DNA of 64,000 nucleotides from a bacterium (GTDB lineage Bacteria > Patescibacteriota > Minisyncoccia > JAHIHE01), in the NCBI GenBank assembly GCA_030693205.1, contig JAUYBG010000006.1, forward strand, positions 4,015-68,014. The letters are read 5' to 3'. The translations under genes were made by a program, and so were the position numbers. Positions 5,051 to 59,667 of this stretch are shown one piece after another (the stretch's first letter is position 1; each line of letters begins with the position of its first letter). The notes under the pieces were generated by a model, which did not search any database, had not been told where the DNA came from, and worked only from the letters and a program-made list of their open reading frames with translations.

Positions 5051-5341
5051 ATGAAATTAACCGGCTTAGAAGTGCAGCGTATCGCTGATTTAGCCAGGAT
5101 TGAGTTGACCGGCCGAGAAAAAGAAAAATATGCCGAAGAGCTTTCGGCGGTTTTAGGTTTTATTGAACAGCTGTCAAAAGTGAATACCGATAATGTTGTT
5201 CCGACCAGTCAGGTTACCGGTTTGGTTAATGTTGTCCGGGAAGATAAGACGGAGGATTGCAACGAAGACACTCGTAAACAGATCTTTAAGGCCGCGCCGC
5301 TGGCAGAAGGGGAATATTTTAAAGTTAAGGCGGTGTTATAG
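5051..5341 (+). CDS. gatC: Asp/Glu-tRNA(Asn/Gln) amidotransferase subunit C.
   Basis: 96 aa with the GatC signature (LARLEL..EE.EK.....IL..VE.L..V.T..V.PT). Confidence 0.8.
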   Translation: MKLTGLEVQRIADLARIELTGREKEKYAEELSAVLGFIEQLSKVNTDNVVPTSQVTGLVNVVREDKTEDCNEDTRKQIFKAAPLAEGEYFKVKAVL

Positions 5342-5352
5342 AAAATAAAATT

Positions 5353-5427
5353 GATTTATGAAATATGATTTAAGATTTATGAATAATTATAATTTTCCCG
5401 TAAATCGTAAATCGTAAATCGTAAATC
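5353..5427. repeat. Heptamer-built palindromic intergenic element, copy 1. The left arm gatttatgaaatatgatttaagatttatgaat is followed by a spacer and then a gtaaatc x4 tandem.
   Basis: The left arm is near-identical to the 34-bp arms at 12337 and 36621. The right arm is the reverse-complement heptamers (taaatcN) and can pair with the left arm. Confidence 0.7.
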
Positions 5428-5575
5428 TGAGCAATTCTTTTGCGGTTTCAATGTATTTATCCGAATTAATCCCCCACCCATGTAATAAAATAATTGGAAT
5501 ATTTCCATCGCCAATTTGTTTATAATTTACATTCAAATCGTCAATTTTAATTTGTTTTTCCTGCATATTTAACAT
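5387..5575 (-). pseudogene. N-terminal remnant of an alpha/beta-hydrolase. Its reading frame runs into the heptamer repeat element.
   Basis: Only 62 aa, with the alpha/beta-hydrolase N-terminal motif IPIILLHGWG. The C-terminal residues (DLRFT DLRFT) are translated from the gtaaatc tandem, so the rest of the gene is missing. Confidence 0.55.
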
Positions 5576-5579
5576 ACAT

Positions 5580-5987
5580 CTACTTTTTTCTCAACTTCGA
5601 CGACTTATATATTTCCGGATGAAAAGGGTTTAATTTAATTATTTGCGTCTTGACAAGGTCAAACGCAGTCAATTTTTCCTTTAACTCTTCAAGCATTACT
5701 TCCTGATCATATCCTAAACAAATCATATCTGGTTTGTATTTCTGAATCACTTTATATTTATCATCCAAATCTCCCAAAACTACCAAATCTGCTAATTTGC
5801 TTTCGGATATTGTTTTTTGCCTGGCAAGCTCATTATTTTTTAGCAACCCGCTTTTTACCTTAAAAACATTCTTGTCTCTGGCAACAATAATAATTAAAAA
5901 GTCTCCGTATTCTTTGGCCTGCCTCAAAAAATCCCTGTGACCCTCGTGGAATATATCAAATGTCCCAAACACCATTACTTTTTTCAT
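5580..5987 (-). CDS. Cytidylyltransferase-like nucleotidyltransferase (TagD / RfaE domain-II family).
   Basis: FGTFDIFHEGH is an HxGH nucleotidyltransferase motif. The ~135-aa size matches glycerol-3-phosphate cytidylyltransferase-like proteins. It overlaps the lysS start by 4 nt. Confidence 0.6.
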   Translation of the reverse strand: MKKVMVFGTFDIFHEGHRDFLRQAKEYGDFLIIIVARDKNVFKVKSGLLKNNELARQKTISESKLADLVVLGDLDDKYKVIQKYKPDMICLGYDQEVMLEELKEKLTAFDLVKTQIIKLNPFHPEIYKSSKLRKK

Positions 5988-7447
5988 TTCTTTATCTTAA
6001 TTTCTTTCGGTCGCATCAATGGAAATATCTGACATTCTTTAATCGGCTTATCCATTAAAAAAGAAAATAATCGTTCACTGAAGCCATGTCCGCAAGTCGG
6101 CGGCATACCGTATTCCAGCGCTTCAACAAAATCATAATCTGCCATTTGCGCTTCTTTGTCGCCGGCATCTCGAAGTTTTTGTTGATTTTCAAATCTTTCT
6201 CTTTGATCGACTGGATCATTAAGTTCGCTATACCCTTGGCCGACTTCCGAGCCAGCAATAATAAAATGGAATCTCTCGGTAATATTTGGATTGCTCGACA
6301 ATACTTTTGCTAATGGAGAAGTAAATTTTGGTTCATTAATCAATATAGCGGGTCCCCCGATATTTTTACGGCAATATTTCCATAACGCATCCACCATACG
6401 GACGCGATTATTTGCTTCTGATTTAATTTTCAATTCGTATAATTTTTCCTGTATTTTTTTATCATTATCTTGCCAAATATCTATGCCTGTTTCTTTTTTG
6501 ACAGTTTCGGTATAATCAATAATTGGCCAATCGGCGCCCAAATCAACATCAAATCCTCTAATTTTGAATCCAAGGGTGCCAAAAGTTTTTTGCGCCACAA
6601 AACGATAGCAATCACGTAAAAATTTATACATATCTTCAAAGTTTCCGTATGCCCAATATGCTTCGCATTGAGTATAGTCTTGAAGATGTTCGGTAGATAC
6701 TCCCTCGTTTCTAAAAATCCTGCCTATTTCAAATGTTTTTTCAAAGCCAGCCACCATCAAACGTTTTTGCCATAATTCGCCGGCAGAGATGCGTAAATAG
6801 ACATCCGTATCAAAAGCGCTATGATGGGTTACAAAAGGATTAGCGTCAGCACCGCCGGTTGTATTTTCTAAAACAGGAGTTTCTACCTCTAAAAATCCGC
6901 GCTGCAAATGAAATTCTCGAACAGCATTCCAAAATACAGACTTTTTTTTAATCATCTCTTTAATTTCCGGATTAAATAAAATATCTAAATATCTTTTTCT
7001 CAGTCTTTCTTCCTCGTCCTGAAGCCCATGCCATTTTTCCGGCAAAGGCAAAAGTGATTTTGCCAAAATCCTGCAATTGGAAACCAAAAGGGTTTTTTCG
7101 CCCTTTTTTGTCGTAAAAATTTTTCCCGTAGCCTCAATAAAATCACCGACATCAAAATATCCGATCAAGTCCCATTGCGACGGAATAAGATCGTCTTTCT
7201 TGAAATAAATTTGAAAACTGCCCGAATCATCAGCGATATTGGCAAATATGGATCCTCCGTGACCCCGAATCGCCATTAACCGGCCGGCAAGGATGATCTC
7301 GGCTGATTCCTTTTCAAGTTTTTCCGCGTTTAAAATTGCTTCATTTGTTTTATGAGATCTCGCGGTTTTAGCCGGATATGGATCAATCCCGGCTTCAGCT
7401 ATTTTTTTCATTTTTTCCAAACGTACGCCGCGAATTTTATTAATCAC
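5984..7447 (-). CDS. lysS: Lysyl-tRNA synthetase, class II.
   Basis: 487 aa with an N-terminal anticodon-binding OB region and class II motifs (FRNEG..., GGADANPF...). There is overall LysRS colinearity. Confidence 0.85.
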   Translation of the reverse strand: MINKIRGVRLEKMKKIAEAGIDPYPAKTARSHKTNEAILNAEKLEKESAEIILAGRLMAIRGHGGSIFANIADDSGSFQIYFKKDDLIPSQWDLIGYFDVGDFIEATGKIFTTKKGEKTLLVSNCRILAKSLLPLPEKWHGLQDEEERLRKRYLDILFNPEIKEMIKKKSVFWNAVREFHLQRGFLEVETPVLENTTGGADANPFVTHHSAFDTDVYLRISAGELWQKRLMVAGFEKTFEIGRIFRNEGVSTEHLQDYTQCEAYWAYGNFEDMYKFLRDCYRFVAQKTFGTLGFKIRGFDVDLGADWPIIDYTETVKKETGIDIWQDNDKKIQEKLYELKIKSEANNRVRMVDALWKYCRKNIGGPAILINEPKFTSPLAKVLSSNPNITERFHFIIAGSEVGQGYSELNDPVDQRERFENQQKLRDAGDKEAQMADYDFVEALEYGMPPTCGHGFSERLFSFLMDKPIKECQIFPLMRPKEIKIKK

Positions 7448-30691: not shown

Positions 30692-31693
30692 TTACGATTT
30701 TATACTCCGTTTATAGGCATCCAGATTATCAAGCGCCACCCCTGTTCCTTTTGCCACGCAAAGCAACGGCTCTTCCGCGACACAGCAAGATACGCCCGTA
30801 ACGGTAGAAATTAAAATATCCAAGTTTTTCAACAATGCCCCGCCTCCCGACAATACCATGCCTTTGTCTATTATATCCGCCGCCAGTTCCGGAGGAGTAT
30901 CGGAAAGAACCAGTTTTATAACCTTGATGATCTCTCTTAATTCGTCGGAAATTGCTTCGGTTACTTCATTGGAATTAATTGCAATTGTTTTCGGAAGACC
31001 GCTGATCAGATCTCTTCCCTTAACTTCAAACTCGATGGGTTCTTTAACAGGAATGGCACTGCCGATCGTTATTTTAATTTCTTCGGCCGTTTGTTCGCCA
31101 ATCGCCAAATTATGTTTTTTCTTGACATAATCAGCAATAGACTGATCCAGTTTGTCTCCGCCGATTCTTACTGACGATGACGAAACAATGCCTCCCAGCG
31201 ATATCACGGCTACCTGGCTTGTGCCCCCGCCAATATCAATGATCATATTGCCGGAAGGAGTATTAATCGGTATTCCCGCGCCAATGGCCGCCAAAATCGG
31301 CTGTTTGACGATATAAGCGGCTTTTGCGCCCGCATTCATCGCCGCATCGATAACCGCGCGCCTTTCGGTGGAAGTAATTCCTGCCGGCACTCCCACCATT
31401 ACTTCCGGACGAAAAAACTGAATACGGCCGCAAGTCTTATTGATAAAATATCGGAGCATAGCTTCAATAATCCGATAATCAGCTATAACGCCATCTTTCA
31501 TGGGACGCGAAGCGATTATGGTTTCTGGGGTCTTTCCCAACATTTCCTTTGCTTTGCTTCCAACCGCCAAGATCTTATTATCATCTAAAGAAACCGCCAC
31601 TACTGTCGGTTCGTTTATCACAATGCCTTTTCTGGGAACAAAAACCAAAGTATTGGCCGTACCCAGATCAATGCCAATTTTTTTAATAAACAT
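30692..31693 (-). CDS. mreB: Second MreB-like actin-family ATPase (paralogue). The start was chosen at the internal Met that aligns with MreB N-termini; the ORF-track start at 31816 adds 41 poorly conserved residues.
   Basis: MFIKKIGIDLGTANTLVFV... followed by the full set of MreB motifs. It is a clear paralogue of the 11278-12330 gene but not identical. Confidence 0.8.
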   Translation of the reverse strand: MFIKKIGIDLGTANTLVFVPRKGIVINEPTVVAVSLDDNKILAVGSKAKEMLGKTPETIIASRPMKDGVIADYRIIEAMLRYFINKTCGRIQFFRPEVMVGVPAGITSTERRAVIDAAMNAGAKAAYIVKQPILAAIGAGIPINTPSGNMIIDIGGGTSQVAVISLGGIVSSSSVRIGGDKLDQSIADYVKKKHNLAIGEQTAEEIKITIGSAIPVKEPIEFEVKGRDLISGLPKTIAINSNEVTEAISDELREIIKVIKLVLSDTPPELAADIIDKGMVLSGGGALLKNLDILISTVTGVSCCVAEEPLLCVAKGTGVALDNLDAYKRSIKS

Positions 31694-31825
31694 AAATTTA
31701 CTTACAAAAACTTTCTTACTTTCTTTTAAAATCATAGCAGTAATCAAAAAGCAAGTCAACCTTAAAAGACTTTCAAAATAACTGAAATATGTTATAATGG
31801 CATAAACTGAACTCATTTAAAGTTT

Positions 31826-31902
31826 TGTCATGCTGAACTTGTTTCAGCATCTAAGGTAAGCTAAAAATTAGTAATAGATTCCGAAACAAGTTCGGGATGA
31901 CA
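31826..31902. repeat. Composite inverted repeat. The 28-bp arms tgtcatgctgaacttgtttcagcatcta and tagattccgaaacaagttcgggatgaca flank a 21-bp centre. Each arm carries an internal hairpin with an AAACAAGTT core.
   Basis: The arms are reverse complements at 23 of 28 positions. An equivalent arm pair occurs at 58071-58178. It sits in the divergent mreB2 / membrane-protein intergenic region. Confidence 0.7.
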
Positions 31903-32024: not shown

Positions 32025-33434
32025 ATGAAACTGATAACCAGAAGAATTCTTTTTTGTTTTTGCATTATTTTGTTCTTGATCAGCTCGCCGCTGGTTATCC
32101 TATACGCGTTTGGATTCCGCTATGACTTCGCGGAAAAAAAACTGATGCAAACGGGCATAATCTACTTAACACCCAATATTCAGGATAATATAAAGATCTT
32201 GATCAACGACAAAAAAGAGTCGGGCAAAATAAATATCAAAGGTATTTTTAAAAAAGACTTTGTGCTCTATAATTTGATGCCAAAAACCTACAACATCAAG
32301 ATCGACAAGGAAAATTACCATCGTTGGGAAAAAAATCTTGTCGTTTCGCCGGGACTTATTACCTACGCTCAGCCTTTATTATTGCCGTCCGATCCTAAAA
32401 ATAATTTGATATTCAGCGACACTGATATTGCTCTCTGGTCAATTTCCGACAAGTTTAAAAAAATATTTTATCTAAAAAGCAACGATGAAAAAACATCCGC
32501 CAATATCTATGATTTTTCAAAAAAAACATTGAGCACCTTTCCCGTTGACGCGCTTGGCGATCAATCAAAAAAATCAAGCATTGTTTCCGAAGGCTCAAGG
32601 ATCTTTTTTGCCCCTGACGGAAAAAAATTCGGCTTTATTCTGCCGGAAGAGAACAACAGAATTGTTCTATTGAATTCCGCTGAAAAAAGCATCTTGTCAA
32701 TTGCAGATTTTATTTCAAATAATAAAATCTTGGATGAGCGCTGGGATGATTCCAGCCGTTATTTCCTTTATTTAAACGATAAAGAAGAGCTTAATTTATA
32801 CGATACGACAAACGGAAAACCGAAAAAAATTCTCGAAAATATACTGGGCTTTGCCCTGAAAAACGAAAATATTTATTATCTGGATCGGAATAATCTTTTC
32901 TTTTACCGATCCTCGATCAATAATCCGCTTGAAAAACAACAGCTCTCTTACGTCCCTATGTCCATTGCTCAAAAAGCCCAAAGAATGGAAATATTGATCT
33001 CCGCTAAAAATACTTTGGCTGTAATTACCCCGGAAAAAAATCTTTTTATCGTTGATAAAAACGGCACCCCTCTCAATATTGGAAACGATATAGAAGCGGC
33101 TATATTTTCCAAAGACGGCGAAAATCTCGTTTTTAATTCCTCCAATGAAATTTTTACCTATACGCTAGGCGGCGGCCAAAAAAATCTTGTCACCCGCTTA
33201 TCTCAAAAGATCTCTAATGTCAGCTGGTATAGCGATTACGCTCATATTTGGTATTTGGCAAATCAAATTATAAAGAATATCGAACTGGACTCGCGGCCTA
33301 CTCCGAACATTATTGATTTTATCAATATTCCCAAAAACCCTGCCAATATCATCTATACTGATTCAAATAACATTTACTACGACCAGCTGGAAAATAACGC
33401 TTTATCGATTTATCAGGTTGAAATACAAAAATAA
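32025..33434 (+). CDS. Membrane-anchored hypothetical protein (N-terminal TM helix, PEGA-like beta segment, C-terminal beta-propeller-like region).
   Basis: A hydrophobic N-terminus, then a large soluble domain. No catalytic motif was seen. Confidence 0.35.
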   Translation: MKLITRRILFCFCIILFLISSPLVILYAFGFRYDFAEKKLMQTGIIYLTPNIQDNIKILINDKKESGKINIKGIFKKDFVLYNLMPKTYNIKIDKENYHRWEKNLVVSPGLITYAQPLLLPSDPKNNLIFSDTDIALWSISDKFKKIFYLKSNDEKTSANIYDFSKKTLSTFPVDALGDQSKKSSIVSEGSRIFFAPDGKKFGFILPEENNRIVLLNSAEKSILSIADFISNNKILDERWDDSSRYFLYLNDKEELNLYDTTNGKPKKILENILGFALKNENIYYLDRNNLFFYRSSINNPLEKQQLSYVPMSIAQKAQRMEILISAKNTLAVITPEKNLFIVDKNGTPLNIGNDIEAAIFSKDGENLVFNSSNEIFTYTLGGGQKNLVTRLSQKISNVSWYSDYAHIWYLANQIIKNIELDSRPTPNIIDFINIPKNPANIIYTDSNNIYYDQLENNALSIYQVEIQK

Positions 33435-47583: not shown

Positions 47584-49362
47584 TTATTCTCCCTCAACTT
47601 CTCCCAAGCTCTGCAAACTGAATAATCTATAATACAAACCCCGCTTTTTGATCAGGGCGCTATGTTTGCCTGATTCGACGATCCTTCCTTTGTCCAGCAC
47701 TAATATCTTATCCGCGTGCTGAATCGTACTCAAGCGGTGCGCGATAACAAAAGTGGTCCTGCCTTTGATCAATTTTTTAAGCGCTCTTTGCACCAGTAGC
47801 TCGCTTTTGGAATCCAGCGCCGAAGTCGCCTCGTCTAAGATCAATATCTTCGGATTTTTCAAGATCGCGCGGGCGATCGCCACTCTTTGCTTTTGTCCGG
47901 TGGATAATTTTACCCCTCTTTCTCCGACTTGCTGCGCGAGCTTATCGGGAAAATTATTTATGAACTCATCCGCGTGCGCCGCTTCGGCCGCCCGCCATAT
48001 TTCCGCGTCCGTCGCATCAAGTTTTCCGTAAATAATATTATTTTTCAGCGTATCGTTGAACAAGCTGATCTCCTGCGGCACAATGGCGATCTGGCTCCGC
48101 AAACTTTTTAAATCCAGATCTTGAACATCTGTTCCGTCAAGCATTATTTTCCCGCTGGCAGGAATATTGTAGCGCGAGATCAGATCCACCAATGTCGATT
48201 TCCCGACCCCGCTTTCACCGACCAAAGCGATCACTTGACCCGGCCTGGCTTTAAAATTTATATCTTCCAGCACCGGATTTCCTTTATTATAATTAAAATC
48301 CACGTCTTTAAATTCTATTTGGCCTTTGATCTTATTCAAAACTATCGCTCCTGATTTTTCATATGGTTCCAGGGGCTCATTAAATAATTTTAAAGCTTTT
48401 TTAACGACGCCTACCGAGCGCTTGAACCGTTCAAGATTTTGTGAAATTCGCCGCAAAGGATTAAAAATCAAGCTGCTGTACCCGATAACCGTAACTATCT
48501 CACCGATTGAAATCAAGCTGCGGTCTTTTAATAAAATCAAAACCCCGAATAATAAAATAGTGGTAATGCTAATAATGACCTGCTGATAAGAATCAAGCGC
48601 GCTCCACGCGTTAATAAAATCTTTATACCTCGCGTAGCTGGTATTTAAAGATTTTTTCGCTTTTTCGGTTTCGTATTTTTCATTCACATTCGTTTTTACA
48701 ACTTGAATATTGGCGATGGAATCATGCATAATCGCATCCCCTTCTTCATAAGAGCTGATCATCTTAAGCAGCGCGCCGCTAATGCTATTGATTCTGCTCA
48801 AAGTGATCCAAAGGTAAAAAACAATGGCCAGTCCCAAAAATAAAGCGATCCTCCATTCTATATTTAATATCACCAAATACACCAAAACGACTGTCAAAAG
48901 ATCGGAGCCAAAAACAAAAACTATATCCGTAATGATTGACTCCAAAAAATCGGATGCTCTTATGTATTTTGAAGCGAGTTTTCCCGTCTTTTGAGTTTTA
49001 TGAAAACTTAACCTCAAACGCATCACATAACTGTTCAGGTCGGCGATCAGATCAACCGCGCATTTTACGCTGATTTTTCCCCCTTCGCGCACCACATACC
49101 GATGAGCCCAGTCTTTAATAAAGCTTAAAACCAGCCAAATAAACAAAATCAGGGCAAAAACCGATATCCCTTCACCGTTGATGATCAAATCAATGATTTT
49201 TCCATAAATATAAGGAACAGCGGCTTCGATGGCGGAAGCAAAAAATGCCACGCAAAAAATGATATAAACCTCGCGCTTATATTTCGCTAAAAACCTCCAA
49301 ACGATTTTCAAATCATCAGCGAACTCCATAAAAAAATATTTTTTATTTTTTAACCAATTCAT
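47584..49362 (-). CDS. ABC transporter, fused permease/ATPase (MsbA/lipid-exporter type), embedded in the mur cluster.
   Basis: Six TM helices, then GESGVGKST (Walker A), LSTGQKQR (signature) and ILILDEATSALD (Walker B). Confidence 0.8.
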   Translation of the reverse strand: MNWLKNKKYFFMEFADDLKIVWRFLAKYKREVYIIFCVAFFASAIEAAVPYIYGKIIDLIINGEGISVFALILFIWLVLSFIKDWAHRYVVREGGKISVKCAVDLIADLNSYVMRLRLSFHKTQKTGKLASKYIRASDFLESIITDIVFVFGSDLLTVVLVYLVILNIEWRIALFLGLAIVFYLWITLSRINSISGALLKMISSYEEGDAIMHDSIANIQVVKTNVNEKYETEKAKKSLNTSYARYKDFINAWSALDSYQQVIISITTILLFGVLILLKDRSLISIGEIVTVIGYSSLIFNPLRRISQNLERFKRSVGVVKKALKLFNEPLEPYEKSGAIVLNKIKGQIEFKDVDFNYNKGNPVLEDINFKARPGQVIALVGESGVGKSTLVDLISRYNIPASGKIMLDGTDVQDLDLKSLRSQIAIVPQEISLFNDTLKNNIIYGKLDATDAEIWRAAEAAHADEFINNFPDKLAQQVGERGVKLSTGQKQRVAIARAILKNPKILILDEATSALDSKSELLVQRALKKLIKGRTTFVIAHRLSTIQHADKILVLDKGRIVESGKHSALIKKRGLYYRLFSLQSLGEVEGE

Positions 49363-50917
49363 CCGCCACCTTATAAATATCTCCCGCGCCCATGATCAAT
49401 AAAACATCACCGGGTTTGATTTTTTCATCGATCAATTTTCGAACTTCATCCAAATTTTTGGCATAAAAAATAGAATCGGATTGCAAAAAAACATTATTAT
49501 TGTCATTGCGAGCCCCGCTTGTCGGGGCGTGGCAATCTCTCAACTTGTTTGATAATCTGGCATTAGCCAGAGATTGCTTCGTCGCTTCGCTCCTCGCAAT
49601 GACAGCTTTTATATCTTCCGCCAGTCTTTGCGAGCTCACATTTTGATCTTTTTTTTCTTCTCTTCCTGCAACATCGAAAATTTTCGCCAAAACCAAAACA
49701 TTCGCGCTGTCAAAACTCTTCAAAAAATCATCGTAGAGCATTTTCGTCCGATTATGCTGGTGCGGCTGAAAAACCGCGACAATTCTTCGTTCGGGATAAA
49801 ATTCCCGTGCCGCTTCAATCGTCGACCTCACCGCTGTCGGATGATGCGCGTAATCGGAAATTACCGTTGCGCCGCGATATTCGCCTTTTATCTCAAATCT
49901 CCGCCAAATTCCGCCAAAATCAGCTAAGGATTTTTTTATTTTTTCCGCATCAATTTTCAAATGCAAGCCTGTTGCTATTGCGGCTAACGCGTTATAAACA
50001 TTGAATTTCCCGGGAAGTTTAATCACAAACTCGCCCAAATCTTTATCTCTATAATTTACTTTGAATTTTGTTTTCCCGTTCTCGGTTTTAAAATCATACC
50101 CCCTTACATCATTATTCTCGCCGAGACCAAATTGTATAATTTTCAGCTTTGCATTCGGACTTTTAACTTTTAACTTTAAACTTTCAACTTGCTTGTCGTC
50201 TCCATTCAAAATCAAAACTCCATTATCCGGCAAATGTCCAATAAATTCCTCAAAGGCGCTTCTGAAGTCTGCAATATCTTTATAGTAATCCGTATGGTCA
50301 AGCTCGATATTATTCAAAACGATAATTTTCGGATAATATTCCAAAAAATCACGCTTGTATTCGCAAGCTTCCGCAATAAAATAATGTTCACTGTTTATCG
50401 AGTTGCCAATTCTCAAATTTCCATCAAATTCCGGCACTTTACTCCCTACCACGACACTCGGATCCAATCCGCCGCCTGCCAAAACAAGGCCAACCATTGA
50501 AGTCACAGTTGACTTGCCATGCGTTCCGCAAACAGCAACACCAAATTTATCATTCAATAAAAACCCCAAAGCTTCCGGATAGCTCATAAGAGGTATCCTG
50601 TTTTCTTTAGAGGCTATCATTTCAACATTATCGTAAGCTATCGCAGGCGTATAAATAGCCAGATCCGCGTCCTTCGGCACATTTTCTTTTTTTTGGCCGA
50701 TAAAAATTTTTGCTCCCATTTTTTCTAGCTTTGCCGTAATATCGGATTCACCCAGATCTGAACCGCTAACCTTCTTGCCTTGCGCAAGCATAAGCTTGGA
50801 TATCGCAGAAATGCCAATTCCGCCAATTCCAATAAAATGAATTTTTTTTATTTTATCAAAATCTATTTTTTTCAACCCGTTAAAAATTCCCATATTTATG
50901 CTATCGTTTATTGCCAA
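49343..50917 (-). CDS. murC: UDP-N-acetylmuramate--L-alanine ligase. It contains a 34-codon in-frame palindromic insertion.
   Basis: GIGGIGISAIS (N-terminal Rossmann) and GTHGKSTVTSM (Mur ligase P-loop). The C-terminal domain is interrupted by ARSEATKQSLANARLSNKLRDCHAPTSGARNDNN. Confidence 0.85.
   Translation of the reverse strand: MAINDSINMGIFNGLKKIDFDKIKKIHFIGIGGIGISAISKLMLAQGKKVSGSDLGESDITAKLEKMGAKIFIGQKKENVPKDADLAIYTPAIAYDNVEMIASKENRIPLMSYPEALGFLLNDKFGVAVCGTHGKSTVTSMVGLVLAGGGLDPSVVVGSKVPEFDGNLRIGNSINSEHYFIAEACEYKRDFLEYYPKIIVLNNIELDHTDYYKDIADFRSAFEEFIGHLPDNGVLILNGDDKQVESLKLKVKSPNAKLKIIQFGLGENNDVRGYDFKTENGKTKFKVNYRDKDLGEFVIKLPGKFNVYNALAAIATGLHLKIDAEKIKKSLADFGGIWRRFEIKGEYRGATVISDYAHHPTAVRSTIEAAREFYPERRIVAVFQPHQHNRTKMLYDDFLKSFDSANVLVLAKIFDVAGREEKKDQNVSSQRLAEDIKAVIARSEATKQSLANARLSNKLRDCHAPTSGARNDNNNVFLQSDSIFYAKNLDEVRKLIDEKIKPGDVLLIMGAGDIYKVADELVKK
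49504..49605. repeat. 102-bp palindromic element inserted in-frame within murC. It has 11-bp terminal inverted repeats gtcattgcgag/ctcgcaatgac and nested hairpins.
   Basis: TIR at 49504-49514 versus 49595-49605. Inner palindromes are ccccgcttgtcgggg, and gcaatctct...agagattgc. The length is 102 bp, 34 codons with no stop. The core ctcaacttgtttga resembles the AAACAAGTT motif of the intergenic elements. Confidence 0.7.
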
Positions 50918-58070: not shown

Positions 58071-58178
58071 GGTCATCCCGAATTTATTTCGGGATCTTTA
58101 ATGCTTGTTTCTATTTTCATAGATTCTATTGTGCAATATAGTAGTTCCTATAGATCCTGAAACAAGTTCAGGATGACA
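58071..58178. repeat. Second composite inverted repeat of the AAACAAGTT family. Arms ggtcatcccgaatttatttcgggatctt and tagatcctgaaacaagttcaggatgaca flank a 52-bp centre.
   Basis: The second arm is 26/28 identical to the reverse complement of 31826-31853. Both arms end in TGTCAT/ATGACA-like termini. It overlaps the murD 3' end. Confidence 0.65.
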
Positions 58179-59667
58179 GATTAAACTTTTCCACAATTAA
58201 ATTCCTTATCGGTTTTTTAAGAATATCAATGTACCTCGCTTGAAAATGCGCCGAGGCAGGCGAAATTAATACAATATCGCCTGTTTTTATTTGCTCTTTT
58301 AATAGATCCAGCGCCTCTAAAAAATCATTATATTCAAAAAGTTTCATTTTTTGACATTCGGCGTTTATAATTTGGTTTTTAATAATATCACTTCCTGTTC
58401 CCGGCAATAAAATCAAGATATCCACCTTGCCGACAATCTCTTCCGTCATCCCTGCATAATCCATCCCTTTATCGTCCCCGCCCATAATTAAAATCATTCT
58501 TGACTCTTGGCTCTTGATCCTTAACTCATTCAGCGCTTTTATCGCCACGATCGTAGAATCAGGGTTGGTAGAAGCCAGATCATCATAAAATTTTACCCCA
58601 TTATATTCACCGATAAATTCGATTCGATGCGGAAGGCCTTGAAAATCCTGAATTGTTTTTTTTATTTCTTCCGGCTCCGCGCCCGCCAAAGAACCAACCA
58701 ATGCTGCGGCTAAAACATTCTCTATATTATGTTCACCTAGAAGCTTAATATCCCTCAAATCGCAAATCTCTTTTTTATCACTTTTAATTTTTACAAAAAT
58801 TTTTCCGTTTTCCACGCAAGCTCCGCTTTTAACTTCACTTTTTCTGCTGAAGAAAAAAACTTTTATGCCTCGCGTAATCAATTCTTCGCCAATTTTTTTT
58901 GTAATTTCATTATCATAATTCAAGACTGCGACATTATCTTTTTTCGTATATTGAAAAAGGCTTTTTTTAACCGCAATGTATTTCTCAAAGCTGCCATGCT
59001 CATCAATATGATCAGGCGAAATATTGGTAATTATTCCGATATCAGGGCTTCTGCCCAAATCAATCGTTAGCTGGCGATTGCTTGTTTCCAATACTAAAAT
59101 ATTGTCTTTCCCCATTTTTGAAACCTTATCCGGCTCTTGCGCGCTTCGCCGGTCATTGCCCGCCAAATACACATTTTTCTTTTTGCCGGATTTTAATAAA
59201 ATTTCATAGATCAACCGCGAGGTAGTGCCCTTGCCTTTTGTGCCGGTAACAGAAATTATTTTTCCCTTAGCCATCTCAAAATATAATTTAGTCAGACTAG
59301 AAAATTCAATGCTTTTTTTCTTCGCATCTTCGAGTCCGGGGAAATTGGGTTTGTACAAATACCAAGATGACGGCACAAAAACAATATCCGCGCTATCCAC
59401 ACCTTCAAGATATTTATCCTTAAGTTTTAATTTTATCGGCAATTGTAAAAAATTTTCAAACGCTTTAATTTTTTCTTTTCCTTTCAGCCACAAATGCGTC
59501 TTAAAAAAATTATTTTTAAATTCTTCCTGATCCCGAGAAAAATCATGCGCCGTAATGCTTTTAATCCCGTTTTTAATGAAAAATTCCAAAACCGCGCTTC
59601 CTTCCGTTCCCGAAACGCCGACAATATGAATATTCTTGGTTTTAATTTTTTCTAAAAATTTATTCAC
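58168..59667 (-). CDS. murD: Mur ligase, most likely UDP-N-acetylmuramoylalanine--D-glutamate ligase.
   Basis: N-terminal Rossmann IHIVGVSGTEGSAV. The P-loop is ISVTGTKGKGTTSRL and the Mur ligase central and C-terminal domains are present. The position upstream of ftsW supports MurD. Confidence 0.65.
   Translation of the reverse strand: MNKFLEKIKTKNIHIVGVSGTEGSAVLEFFIKNGIKSITAHDFSRDQEEFKNNFFKTHLWLKGKEKIKAFENFLQLPIKLKLKDKYLEGVDSADIVFVPSSWYLYKPNFPGLEDAKKKSIEFSSLTKLYFEMAKGKIISVTGTKGKGTTSRLIYEILLKSGKKKNVYLAGNDRRSAQEPDKVSKMGKDNILVLETSNRQLTIDLGRSPDIGIITNISPDHIDEHGSFEKYIAVKKSLFQYTKKDNVAVLNYDNEITKKIGEELITRGIKVFFFSRKSEVKSGACVENGKIFVKIKSDKKEICDLRDIKLLGEHNIENVLAAALVGSLAGAEPEEIKKTIQDFQGLPHRIEFIGEYNGVKFYDDLASTNPDSTIVAIKALNELRIKSQESRMILIMGGDDKGMDYAGMTEEIVGKVDILILLPGTGSDIIKNQIINAECQKMKLFEYNDFLEALDLLKEQIKTGDIVLISPASAHFQARYIDILKKPIRNLIVEKFNLSS

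Follow-up and report, generated by a model that had tools for sequence, protein, structure and literature searches.

How does a gene for an essential enzyme of peptidoglycan synthesis come to carry a palindrome of 102 bp within its coding sequence, and to what kind of DNA does such a palindrome belong? The question is raised by murC in a stretch of 64,000 nucleotides from a bacterium of the Patescibacteriota (hereafter the window; NCBI assembly GCA_030693205.1, contig JAUYBG010000006.1, positions 4,015 to 68,014), in which an earlier reading of the letters (hereafter the original prediction) had noticed an in-frame element resembling the Rickettsia palindromic elements (RPEs). We find it likely that the insert is a non-autonomous repeat of the CGTC-tagged repetitive extragenic palindrome (REP) type, here tagged with TGTC, that sits as a whole dimer in a tolerant loop of MurC and whose units are probably recognised by an Ssn nuclease as hairpins of single-stranded DNA (ssDNA). 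The gene, which is an open reading frame (ORF) of the minus strand, and the insert have the following coordinates in the window:

49343-50917, minus strand: murC (UDP-N-acetylmuramate--L-alanine ligase), 524-aa ORF with the Pfam domains Mur_ligase, Mur_ligase_M and Mur_ligase_C
49502-49603, unstranded: insert, 102 bp, two TGTC-tagged hairpin units arranged head to head as a dimer, located after codon GCT (Ala438) and before codon AAT (Asn473)

The window protein matched MurC chains of the PDB with E = 1.6e-90; the NCBI call of the gene (P0001) starts 8 codons further in and is 516 aa long. The insert is delimited to exactly 102 bp by perfect 11-bp inverted termini, GTCATTGCGAG/CTCGCAATGAC, at 49502-49512 and 49593-49603 (GTCATTGCGAG being read on the plus strand at the former and on the minus strand at the latter), which grow to 12 bp when the flanking T and A are included (49501-49604). 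In the murC frame it encodes VIARSEATKQSLANARLSNKLRDCHAPTSGARND, the 34 residues 439-472, and is free of stop codons; two of the six frames through the insert are open. Its G+C content is 53.9%, compared to 38.4% for the remainder of murC. The original prediction of a stop-free palindromic insert that lengthens MurC by 34 residues in frame is borne out by these data, and the nested repeats that it had described, the pair GCAATCTCT/AGAGATTGC and CCCCG..CGGGG, were both found. Its coordinates, 49504-49605, had the correct length of 102 bp and were placed 2 nt too high, and the peptide that it quoted was off by two residues.

That the 34 residues are an insertion, as had been proposed, was established by the alignment of MurC orthologues. 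The closest of 120 orthologues, P0002 on contig L001 (88.6% nucleotide and 86% amino-acid identity over aligned columns), is devoid of the insert: it reads DIKKANGKLADNIFYA where the window protein has DIKA, the 34 residues and then NNNVFLQSDSIFYA. Once exactly 102 bp are removed, AAA GCT|AAT AAT of the window aligns with AAA GCC|AAT GGT of L001, and a second empty site is present in contig L127 (TTAGCC|AACGGT). This codon match indicates a seamless insertion between two codons, without target-site duplication. As P0002 has no such segment, the 34 residues are not a lineage-conserved loop, the outcome that the original prediction had named as speaking against it. We therefore regard it as extremely improbable that the element is a conserved loop that happens to be palindromic, or an artefact of assembly. 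The record of the exact window MurC from one NCBI contig of a metagenome-assembled genome (MAG) could be taken to favour an artefact; in addition to the insert-free nearest orthologue, the same DNA element occurs outside murC and across phyla, and related dimers are present at the same murC site in four independent assemblies (see below).

At the protein level, HMMER alignments to PDB MurC chains break at the insert, query residues 436 to 483 corresponding to residues 412 to 419 of the 9ir5 chain. The segment GREE..IFYA is of variable length among the 120 orthologues (19-80 residues, the commonest length being 25). In an AlphaFold2 (AF2) model of the window MurC, which has a mean predicted local distance difference test (pLDDT) value of 81 and a target-normalised template-modelling (TM) score of 0.92 against Haemophilus influenzae MurC (1p31_A), the first half of the insert is taken up by the continuation of helix 429-456, and pLDDT values fall below 50 at residues 458-474. 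The model thus gives the insert as a prolonged helix with a disordered linker after it, and the modelled disorder, together with the natural length variation, suggests that it forms a surface loop. In a 35-sequence alignment all invariant columns are intact in the window MurC, which holds by definition because this protein is the first row. There is no indication that the 34 residues serve any function of their own. A protein homologue search with a 40-aa version of the insert peptide gave no matches, and an exhaustive representative search gave only three: two (P0122 and P0123) are ORFs that run through arrays of the same repeats, and the third (P0121) is an unrelated tandem-repeat protein.

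The MurC clade holds further repeat-derived peptides (P0012-P0102 of alignment A1, L125 and L126). A family with the sequence 'IPPLKKGxRGIS' is found at the same MurC loop in about 15-20 of the 120 orthologues, 'KPAAASKKLWRGK' occurs after GEYK, and 'IPPLLGGARGG' and 'ARLDSARQG' are also present in MurC orthologues. This assortment of peptides indicates that several unrelated repeat families decorate MurC at about four sites. It is also important to note, for annotation, that repeat-derived peptides in conserved enzymes (VIARSEATKQS.., ..GARND, ..LAMT) are insertions and not domains.

The next question is how the element is built. Its parts, in the reading direction of murC, and the flank that follows them are:

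49572-49603, minus strand: unit 1 (5' unit), (T)GTC-ATTGC-GAG GAGCGAAGCGAC GAA-GCAAT-C, tail TC
49538-49571, unstranded: spacer of 34 bp with two small hairpins, TCAA-CTTGT-TTGA (49540-49552) and TGGC-ATTA-GCCA (49558-49569)
49502-49537, plus strand: unit 2, (T)GTC-ATTGC-GAG-CCCCG CTTGT CGGGG-CGTG-GCAAT-C, ssDNA fold of -10.9 kcal/mol, z = -3.5
49469-49501, minus strand: right-hand flank AAT AAT AAT GTT TTT TTG CAA TCC GAT TCT (NNNVFLQSDS), the 'long-form' loop segment common to all insert-bearing orthologues

We read the insert as two inverted hairpin units, each with a GTC tag, a stem that starts A-T/T-A, a variable GC hairpin and a C directly after the stem, joined by the structured spacer. 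Over about 31 nt, unit 1 does not differ from units in Bradyrhizobium (L018). The first spacer hairpin (49540-49552) contains the motif AACTTGTTT, and in the right-hand flank the sequence TTGCAATCC is possibly the relic of an older unit. Folded as ssDNA, the whole insert reaches -28/-29 kcal/mol, compared to about -13 kcal/mol in shuffles (z = -6.7/-6.9); the RNA fold is -45.1 kcal/mol (z = -6.2). In the AT-rich window as a whole, 11-bp inverted repeats within 120 nt are not rare (30 k-mer matches vs 7.4 in shuffles), so that the termini by themselves prove little. What is decisive for the reality of the element is the ssDNA fold, the absence of the insert from the closest orthologue and the recurrence of the termini and of the architecture in other genomes and in viral contigs. 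Rfam detected no family at gathering score in the window, and with the murC element and five related loci it gave sub-threshold chance matches only (SAH riboswitch, 26 bits vs a gathering score of 37). Readings as an intein, an intron or a CRISPR were dropped in view of the insert's too small size, the lack of an encoded protein domain and the fact that it is no array.

Recurrence was followed by a terminus scan in which one genome per species was considered and the two termini had to lie 62-92 nt apart. Dimers with the same termini were found at no fewer than 120 loci/genomes across many phyla. The matches listed include Bradyrhizobium and many other Alphaproteobacteria, Rickettsiales (including Tisiphia), Gammaproteobacteria, Bacteroidota, Desulfobacterota, Planctomycetota, Chloroflexota, Ignavibacteriota, Bacillota, Margulisiibacteriota, Zixiibacteriota and Patescibacteria; the Rickettsiales genomes with exact-terminus dimers are L019, L050, L069 and L099. 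Among IMG/VR predicted viral contigs, 87 stretches carry exact-terminus dimers (L132-L211). Identical 11-bp termini are hence common to a very wide range of bacterial phyla and to predicted viral contigs. The copies share one plan, (C/T)GTC-ATTGC-GAG-[variable GC hairpin]-GAA-GCAAT-C(CA/TC), a variable spacer that is often self-complementary, and an inverted unit. Among the 274 ends of 137 same-terminus dimers, a C stands at position -1 in 64% and a T in 33%, and the tail after GCAAT is CCA in 43%, CTC (as in the murC copy) in 29% and CCC in 10%. The lengths of the copies at the 120 loci show no clear bias towards multiples of three (57, 45 and 35 copies with a remainder of 0, 1 and 2, respectively). 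A sorting of these loci into intragenic and intergenic ones on the basis of ORFs was abandoned owing to spurious long ORFs in high-GC genomes.

In the same 137 dimers, flanking direct repeats of 2-5 bp were at or below chance. This bears on the idea that the insert is a classical miniature transposable element with inverted repeats (MITE), i.e., a deletion derivative of an insertion sequence (IS) moved in trans by a DDE transposase acting at the 11-bp terminal inverted repeats (TIRs). Perfect TIRs, small size and many copies across genomes are what such an element would show; however, no target-site duplication is present here or in the 137 copies, every terminus is itself a tagged hairpin, dimers mix unit families (ATTCC with ATTGC), no IS bounded by GTCATTGCGAG termini was found in 1.8 Mb of loci, and CGTC repeats are without transposase association (PMC3733652). 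We consider this origin very improbable.

The stems of the units covary between copies. The pairs are ATTGC/GCAAT in the window, ATTCC/GGAAT in L002, L128 and L129, and ATTCT/AGAAT and ATCCT/AGGAT in L125; covarying pairs (ATGCT/AGCAT and ATCCT/AGGAT, the former at 31.8 kb) are also found in two sister elements of the window, at 31.8 and 58.1 kb, that are described below. Across the covarying copies and the sister families the GTC and the 3' C are fixed. Covariation of the stems between fixed bases indicates that the conserved object is the tagged hairpin unit and not mere terminal repeats. A metagenome scan with the spacer 21-mer TCAAACAAGTTGAGAGATTGC (spacer hairpin and start of unit 2) yielded two further copies, L128 and L129, which are intergenic, lie just upstream of unrelated genes and have the two-hairpin spacer and the unit layout of the murC copy. 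These two, the murC copy of L002, in all of which the spacer is kept, and the window copy make up one sub-family, within which the window copy is set apart chiefly by a compensatory change in the left unit, ATTCC/GGAAT to ATTGC/GCAAT. Judged from the sequences of the copies, the whole dimer is mobile as one piece. Same-family dimers were also seen at gene ends in two other Patescibacteria: in L014 (3703-3793) the dimer supplies the C-terminal 34 residues and the stop region of a 525-aa membrane-protein ORF, and in L036 (7300-7386) it is placed shortly upstream of where a PBP1A-like gene probably starts. A literature search with the terminus string returned unrelated PCR primers only.

As the window copy is not alone in murC, we compared the insertion sites. 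Five murC genes (window, L002, L003, L004 and L125) carry CGTC-type dimers at an identical right junction, ...ATGAC|AAx, which in all five is followed by the shared long-form segment NxxVFLxSxx; the murC DNA of the insert-bearing orthologues is only about 71% identical. The dimers measure 102, 119, 108, 135 and 110 bp, and their left junctions differ. They are 55-75% pairwise identical and are built from different unit families; the dimers related to the window copy come from four independent assemblies (JGI, Logan, NCBI). A test of whether intragenic copies have lengths divisible by three had been suggested; such a length is no fixed trait of the element, as dimers of 119 and 110 bp occupy the same site and the flanks restore the frame. 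Divisibility by three is therefore imposed by selection on the gene and is not intrinsic. The long form also exists without a dimer in L127 (GCC|AAC), where GTCGTTTTGCAATC, which may be a decayed unit, is located six nt downstream of the empty site.

The shared junction has two readings: repeated targeted insertion beside a resident hairpin, or a single old insertion spread by recombination and terminus conversion. In the second, the long-form allele with its insert would have arisen once and moved among related Patescibacteria by homologous recombination (natural transformation), gene conversion from other copies in the genome refreshing the termini, with no transposition into murC in this lineage. 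We regard this as possible, although on the whole rather unlikely. It accounts for the identical right junction and the NxxVFLxSxx segment in all insert-bearing orthologues; the window insert and its 3' flank are closest to L002, the codon-alignment block with this flank and the aligned part of the insert reaching 88% identity vs 71.5% for the whole gene (the MurC proteins being 68% identical); a neighbour-joining (NJ) tree scatters the insert-bearing sequences, each beside short-form relatives; and Patescibacteria are reported to be competent and to have kept recombination genes (PMC12455944). However, the test of informative sites (the window against L001 and against L002, L003 and L004) gives weak evidence: downstream of the insert, L001 is favoured at 17 sites and L002 at 8, the overall ratio being 299:54, and other parts of murC show local excesses of a similar kind. 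The NJ tree is without support values, and the dimers of L003, L004 and L125 vary in their length, their internal sequence and the families of their units.

The first reading, in which the Ala|Asn boundary is a true landing site where different dimers (ATTGC/ATTGC, ATTCC/ATTGC and ATTCT/ATCCT; 102-135 bp) entered independently at one and the same phosphodiester bond in at least 4-5 lineages of Patescibacteria, guided by a decayed resident unit a few nt downstream (such as GTCGTTTTGCAATC of L127), appears doubtful to us. If it were true, REP-type repeats would insert seamlessly and in a site-directed manner beside a tagged hairpin, plausibly at an Ssn cut, and the same rule would space tandem dimers by 10 nt, which would provide a handle on how CGTC repeats move.

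The spacing of tandem dimers is an observation of its own. The distance between neighbouring dimers (..GCAATGAC-N-GTCATTGC..) peaks at 10 nt: 9 of 41 pairs have exactly this spacing and 17 of 41 one of 8-12 nt, a few of these pairs being one contig counted via overlapping loci (e.g., L193/L219). The loci concerned are L141, L152, L159, L180, L193, L205 and L219, and the intervening sequences are unrelated.

We then asked which enzyme might act on the units. A jackhmmer search over about 1.8 Mb of fetched loci was started from the protein of L087, which had first been picked with an Escherichia coli YhbQ sequence. It found only two small single-domain GIY-YIG genes of Ssn-like type, in L087 and L193, whose products are 72% identical. 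The L087 gene (Lacinutrix venerupis; gene and dimers at 1602-2021) encodes 109 aa (PF01541, E = 7e-18); its start codon is directly adjoined by a full ATTGC dimer, and its 3' end overlaps with a degenerate unit. The L193 gene (IMG/VR contig; gene and dimers at 5333-5993) encodes 97 aa and has two tandem dimers just past its stop and a half-unit with another dimer just before its start. Both genes thus lie between ATTGC dimers in the manner of the NTS-ssnA-NTS arrangement of Neisseria, which suggests, by analogy, that the ATTGC family too has a cognate Ssn-type nuclease. A related-locus search in viral contigs with both GIY-YIG proteins returned, apart from the locus already known, only three T5orf172-like genes, which are unrelated and have no units.

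From these elements we derive the following sequence of events, of which the entry and the persistence of the dimer are shown by the data. The whole dimer entered murC in one piece, between two codons of a length-variable loop of the C-terminal domain and without target-site duplication. It persists because the total insertion keeps the frame, the frame is stop-free and additional residues are tolerated by the loop. As would be expected from its NTS/dRS3 and RPE-4/-6 relatives, the unit probably serves, in the form of an ssDNA hairpin, as the target that a small Ssn-family GIY-YIG nuclease recognises, and spread would probably proceed via single-stranded intermediates and/or by homologous recombination of the insert-bearing allele between related lineages.

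Are there related elements in the rest of the window? A scan for units of the form GTC-ATxyz...z'y'x'AT-C gave 7 matches vs 1.5 expected, five of which make three dimers. Two of these belong to sister families:

31827-31901, unstranded: sister-family dimer GTCATGCTGAACTTGTTTCAGCATC ... GATTCCGAAACAAGTTCGGGATGAC (TGTC...GACA), 75 bp, intergenic, fold z = -6.6
58072-58177, unstranded: sister-family dimer found by the unit scan, 106 bp, fold z = -4.9

The dimer at 31.8 kb is located between the divergent ORFs 30692-31816 (minus strand) and 32025-33434 (plus strand). At 58.1 kb, a Mur-ligase ORF of 499 aa (58168-59667, minus strand) takes its last two codons (Ser-Ser) and its TGA stop from the right unit of the dimer (GTCATCCTGAACTTGTTTCAGGATC, minus strand); this element had been taken for a solo unit until the unit scan revealed the full dimer. 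The motif AACTTGTTT occurs at 31836, 31884, 49542, 50991 and 58160, i.e., 5 matches vs 1.25 expected. On the basis of this shared motif the original prediction had placed the murC element and those at 31.8 and 58.1 kb in one family. The motif is indeed shared and the three belong to one superfamily; they do not form a single family, since the stems are ATGCT, ATCCC and ATCCT in the sister elements vs ATTGC in murC. Moreover, AACTTGTTT lies in the unit loop of the sister elements and in the spacer of the murC element; as these positions are non-homologous, the motif marks the superfamily and not one family. Elsewhere in the window, the segment 24001-28000 has a G+C content of 0.27-0.29 vs about 0.38 for the other parts and may be a foreign island, and two ORFs match the RhuM family.

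The two additional dimers lie beside cell-wall genes, which raises the question of whether the 34 residues, or the DNA or RNA structure, were co-opted: as an interaction surface of MurC, as an mRNA fold that tunes translation in the dcw cluster, or as an Ssn-cleavable site that limits recombination. The stable RNA fold, the perfect conservation of the termini in orthologues with about 71% murC DNA identity and the modulation of transformation by NTS repeats in Neisseria are consistent with such a role. In contrast, the insert is missing from the closest relatives and from most of the 120 orthologues, the insert peptide is not conserved between the insert-bearing orthologues, half of the insert is modelled as disordered, and unrelated repeat families share the same loop. 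We judge co-option to be improbable.

Several observations weigh against a CGTC-type mobile repeat recognised by an Ssn nuclease and have to be set beside the evidence for it. (i) The murC of the window is recorded from a single NCBI contig. Two contigs of the Logan assembly of run SRR13727537 (L130 and L131), in which two window proteins are identical, are probably from the same or a near-identical population; they cover other parts of the window and break near 53.1 kb, short of murC, so that in this genome the insert is known only from the NCBI MAG. (ii) Within the window there is only one copy of the ATTGC family. (iii) Unit 1 alone folds no better than shuffles (z = +1.0). (iv) No GIY-YIG gene is present in the 64-kb window or in the approximately 5.5 kb added by the Logan contigs, so that a cognate nuclease in this genome is putative. 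(v) The published pattern for Ssn-related motifs (SRMs), HGTCWYN(0-2)YYVSBRHN(0-5)WNVSBRGN(0-2)RNCYNB, has 0 matches in the window vs 0.06 expected in shuffles; the ATTGC variant that lies in the dimers flanking the GIY-YIG genes is missed by this pattern. (vi) The unit departs in its architecture from the described CGTC stem, as detailed below.

How does the element compare with known systems? REPINs, which are moved by RAYT transposases, consist of a doublet of inverted REPs tagged with GTAG and a spacer, and behave as one unit without target duplication. The murC element resembles them in that two inverted tagged hairpins and their spacer appear to move together, without target duplication, and in that an ssDNA hairpin is presumably the recognised form, as proposed here. 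In contrast to REPINs, its tag is TGTC/CGTC and not GTAG, and the gene seen with the dimers elsewhere is a GIY-YIG nuclease; no Y1 (RAYT) gene was found among the 25 of 94 Pfam families listed for 62 ORFs of the window. With MITEs, derived from ISs and dependent on DDE transposases, it shares TIRs and not the target-site duplication. The first of the RPEs, RPE-1, reportedly described by Ogata et al. in 2000 (Science 290:347) as a palindromic selfish repeat that lies in frame in essential genes and is tolerated at the protein surface, corresponds to the murC insert in concept, an in-frame palindrome in an essential gene; it is about 150 bp long and we take it to be unrelated in sequence.

The closest likeness is with the CGTC-tagged REPs. 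These have a terminal CGTC, often TGTC, a stem that opens with complementary A and T (8-9 bp with a loop of 4-5 nt in families 1-4) and a 3-nt tail near CCA; they occur mainly as head-to-head dimers with spacers of 20-100 bp, have in-frame intragenic copies, also in housekeeping genes, and show no transposase association (Di Nocera, De Gregorio & Rocco 2013, BMC Genomics 14:522; PMC3733652). In the murC element, TGTC (accepted as a tag, as is CCTC) is present at both ends; both units, like those at 31.8 and 58.1 kb, have the A-T/T-A stem start (GTC-ATTGC...GCAAT-C in murC); the units are inverted with their tags outward around a structured 34-bp spacer; no target-site duplication is seen in the 137 copies and the empty-site comparison; and no linked transposase is seen. 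The short tail of the murC copy is CTC, a form found in 29% of the family, the consensus CCA being found in 43%. The unit departs from the described 8-9 bp stem and 4-5 nt loop: its stem has 5 bp and is followed by an internal loop (GAG/GAA) and then by a variable GC hairpin. Bradyrhizobium CGTC-1 is described with atypical loops (PMC3733652) and may be the ATTGC family of the murC insert. The CGTC superfamily includes RPE-6 (CGTC-1) and RPE-4 (CGTC-4) of R. conorii and dRS3 (CGTC-1) of Neisseria (PMC3733652). The resemblance to RPEs that had been noticed first is thus upheld: tag, stem start and head-to-head layout are those of the superfamily that holds RPE-4 and RPE-6, the insert is in frame and stop-free, and the gene is intact. 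The likeness is set by the described CGTC features. The six frames of the insert had no match in NCBIfam and Pfam (E up to 10), which is no test of RPE membership as the presence of RPE models in these libraries is unconfirmed.

The Neisseria NTS (CGTCATTCCCGCG..GCGGGAATC) extends the comparison to an enzyme. SsnA, a GIY-YIG nuclease of 94 aa, binds and cuts NTS in its form as a single-stranded hairpin; cutting depends on the three nt 5' of the stem and binding on the C that follows it; NTS repeats modulate transformation, and in many bacteria ssn genes are flanked by SRMs (PMC11893778; Nat Commun 2025, 16:2388). Both murC units have GTC directly 5' and C directly 3' of the hairpin, and their stems begin and end with AT as in NTS, the stem being ATTCCCGC in NTS vs ATTGC here. 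The GIY-YIG genes between ATTGC dimers, the different dimers at one exact murC junction and the 10-nt tandems may help to explain how CGTC repeats spread. Neither Patescibacteria nor murC are among the hosts and genes reported for CGTC REPs, so that protein-coding palindromes of the CGTC/RPE type now extend to the small genomes of Patescibacteria and to an essential peptidoglycan ligase. Taken together, the event is already known in kind, from RPE-4 and RPE-6 in Rickettsia and dRS3/NTS in Neisseria; what is new is the phylum, the host gene and the variant architecture of the unit.

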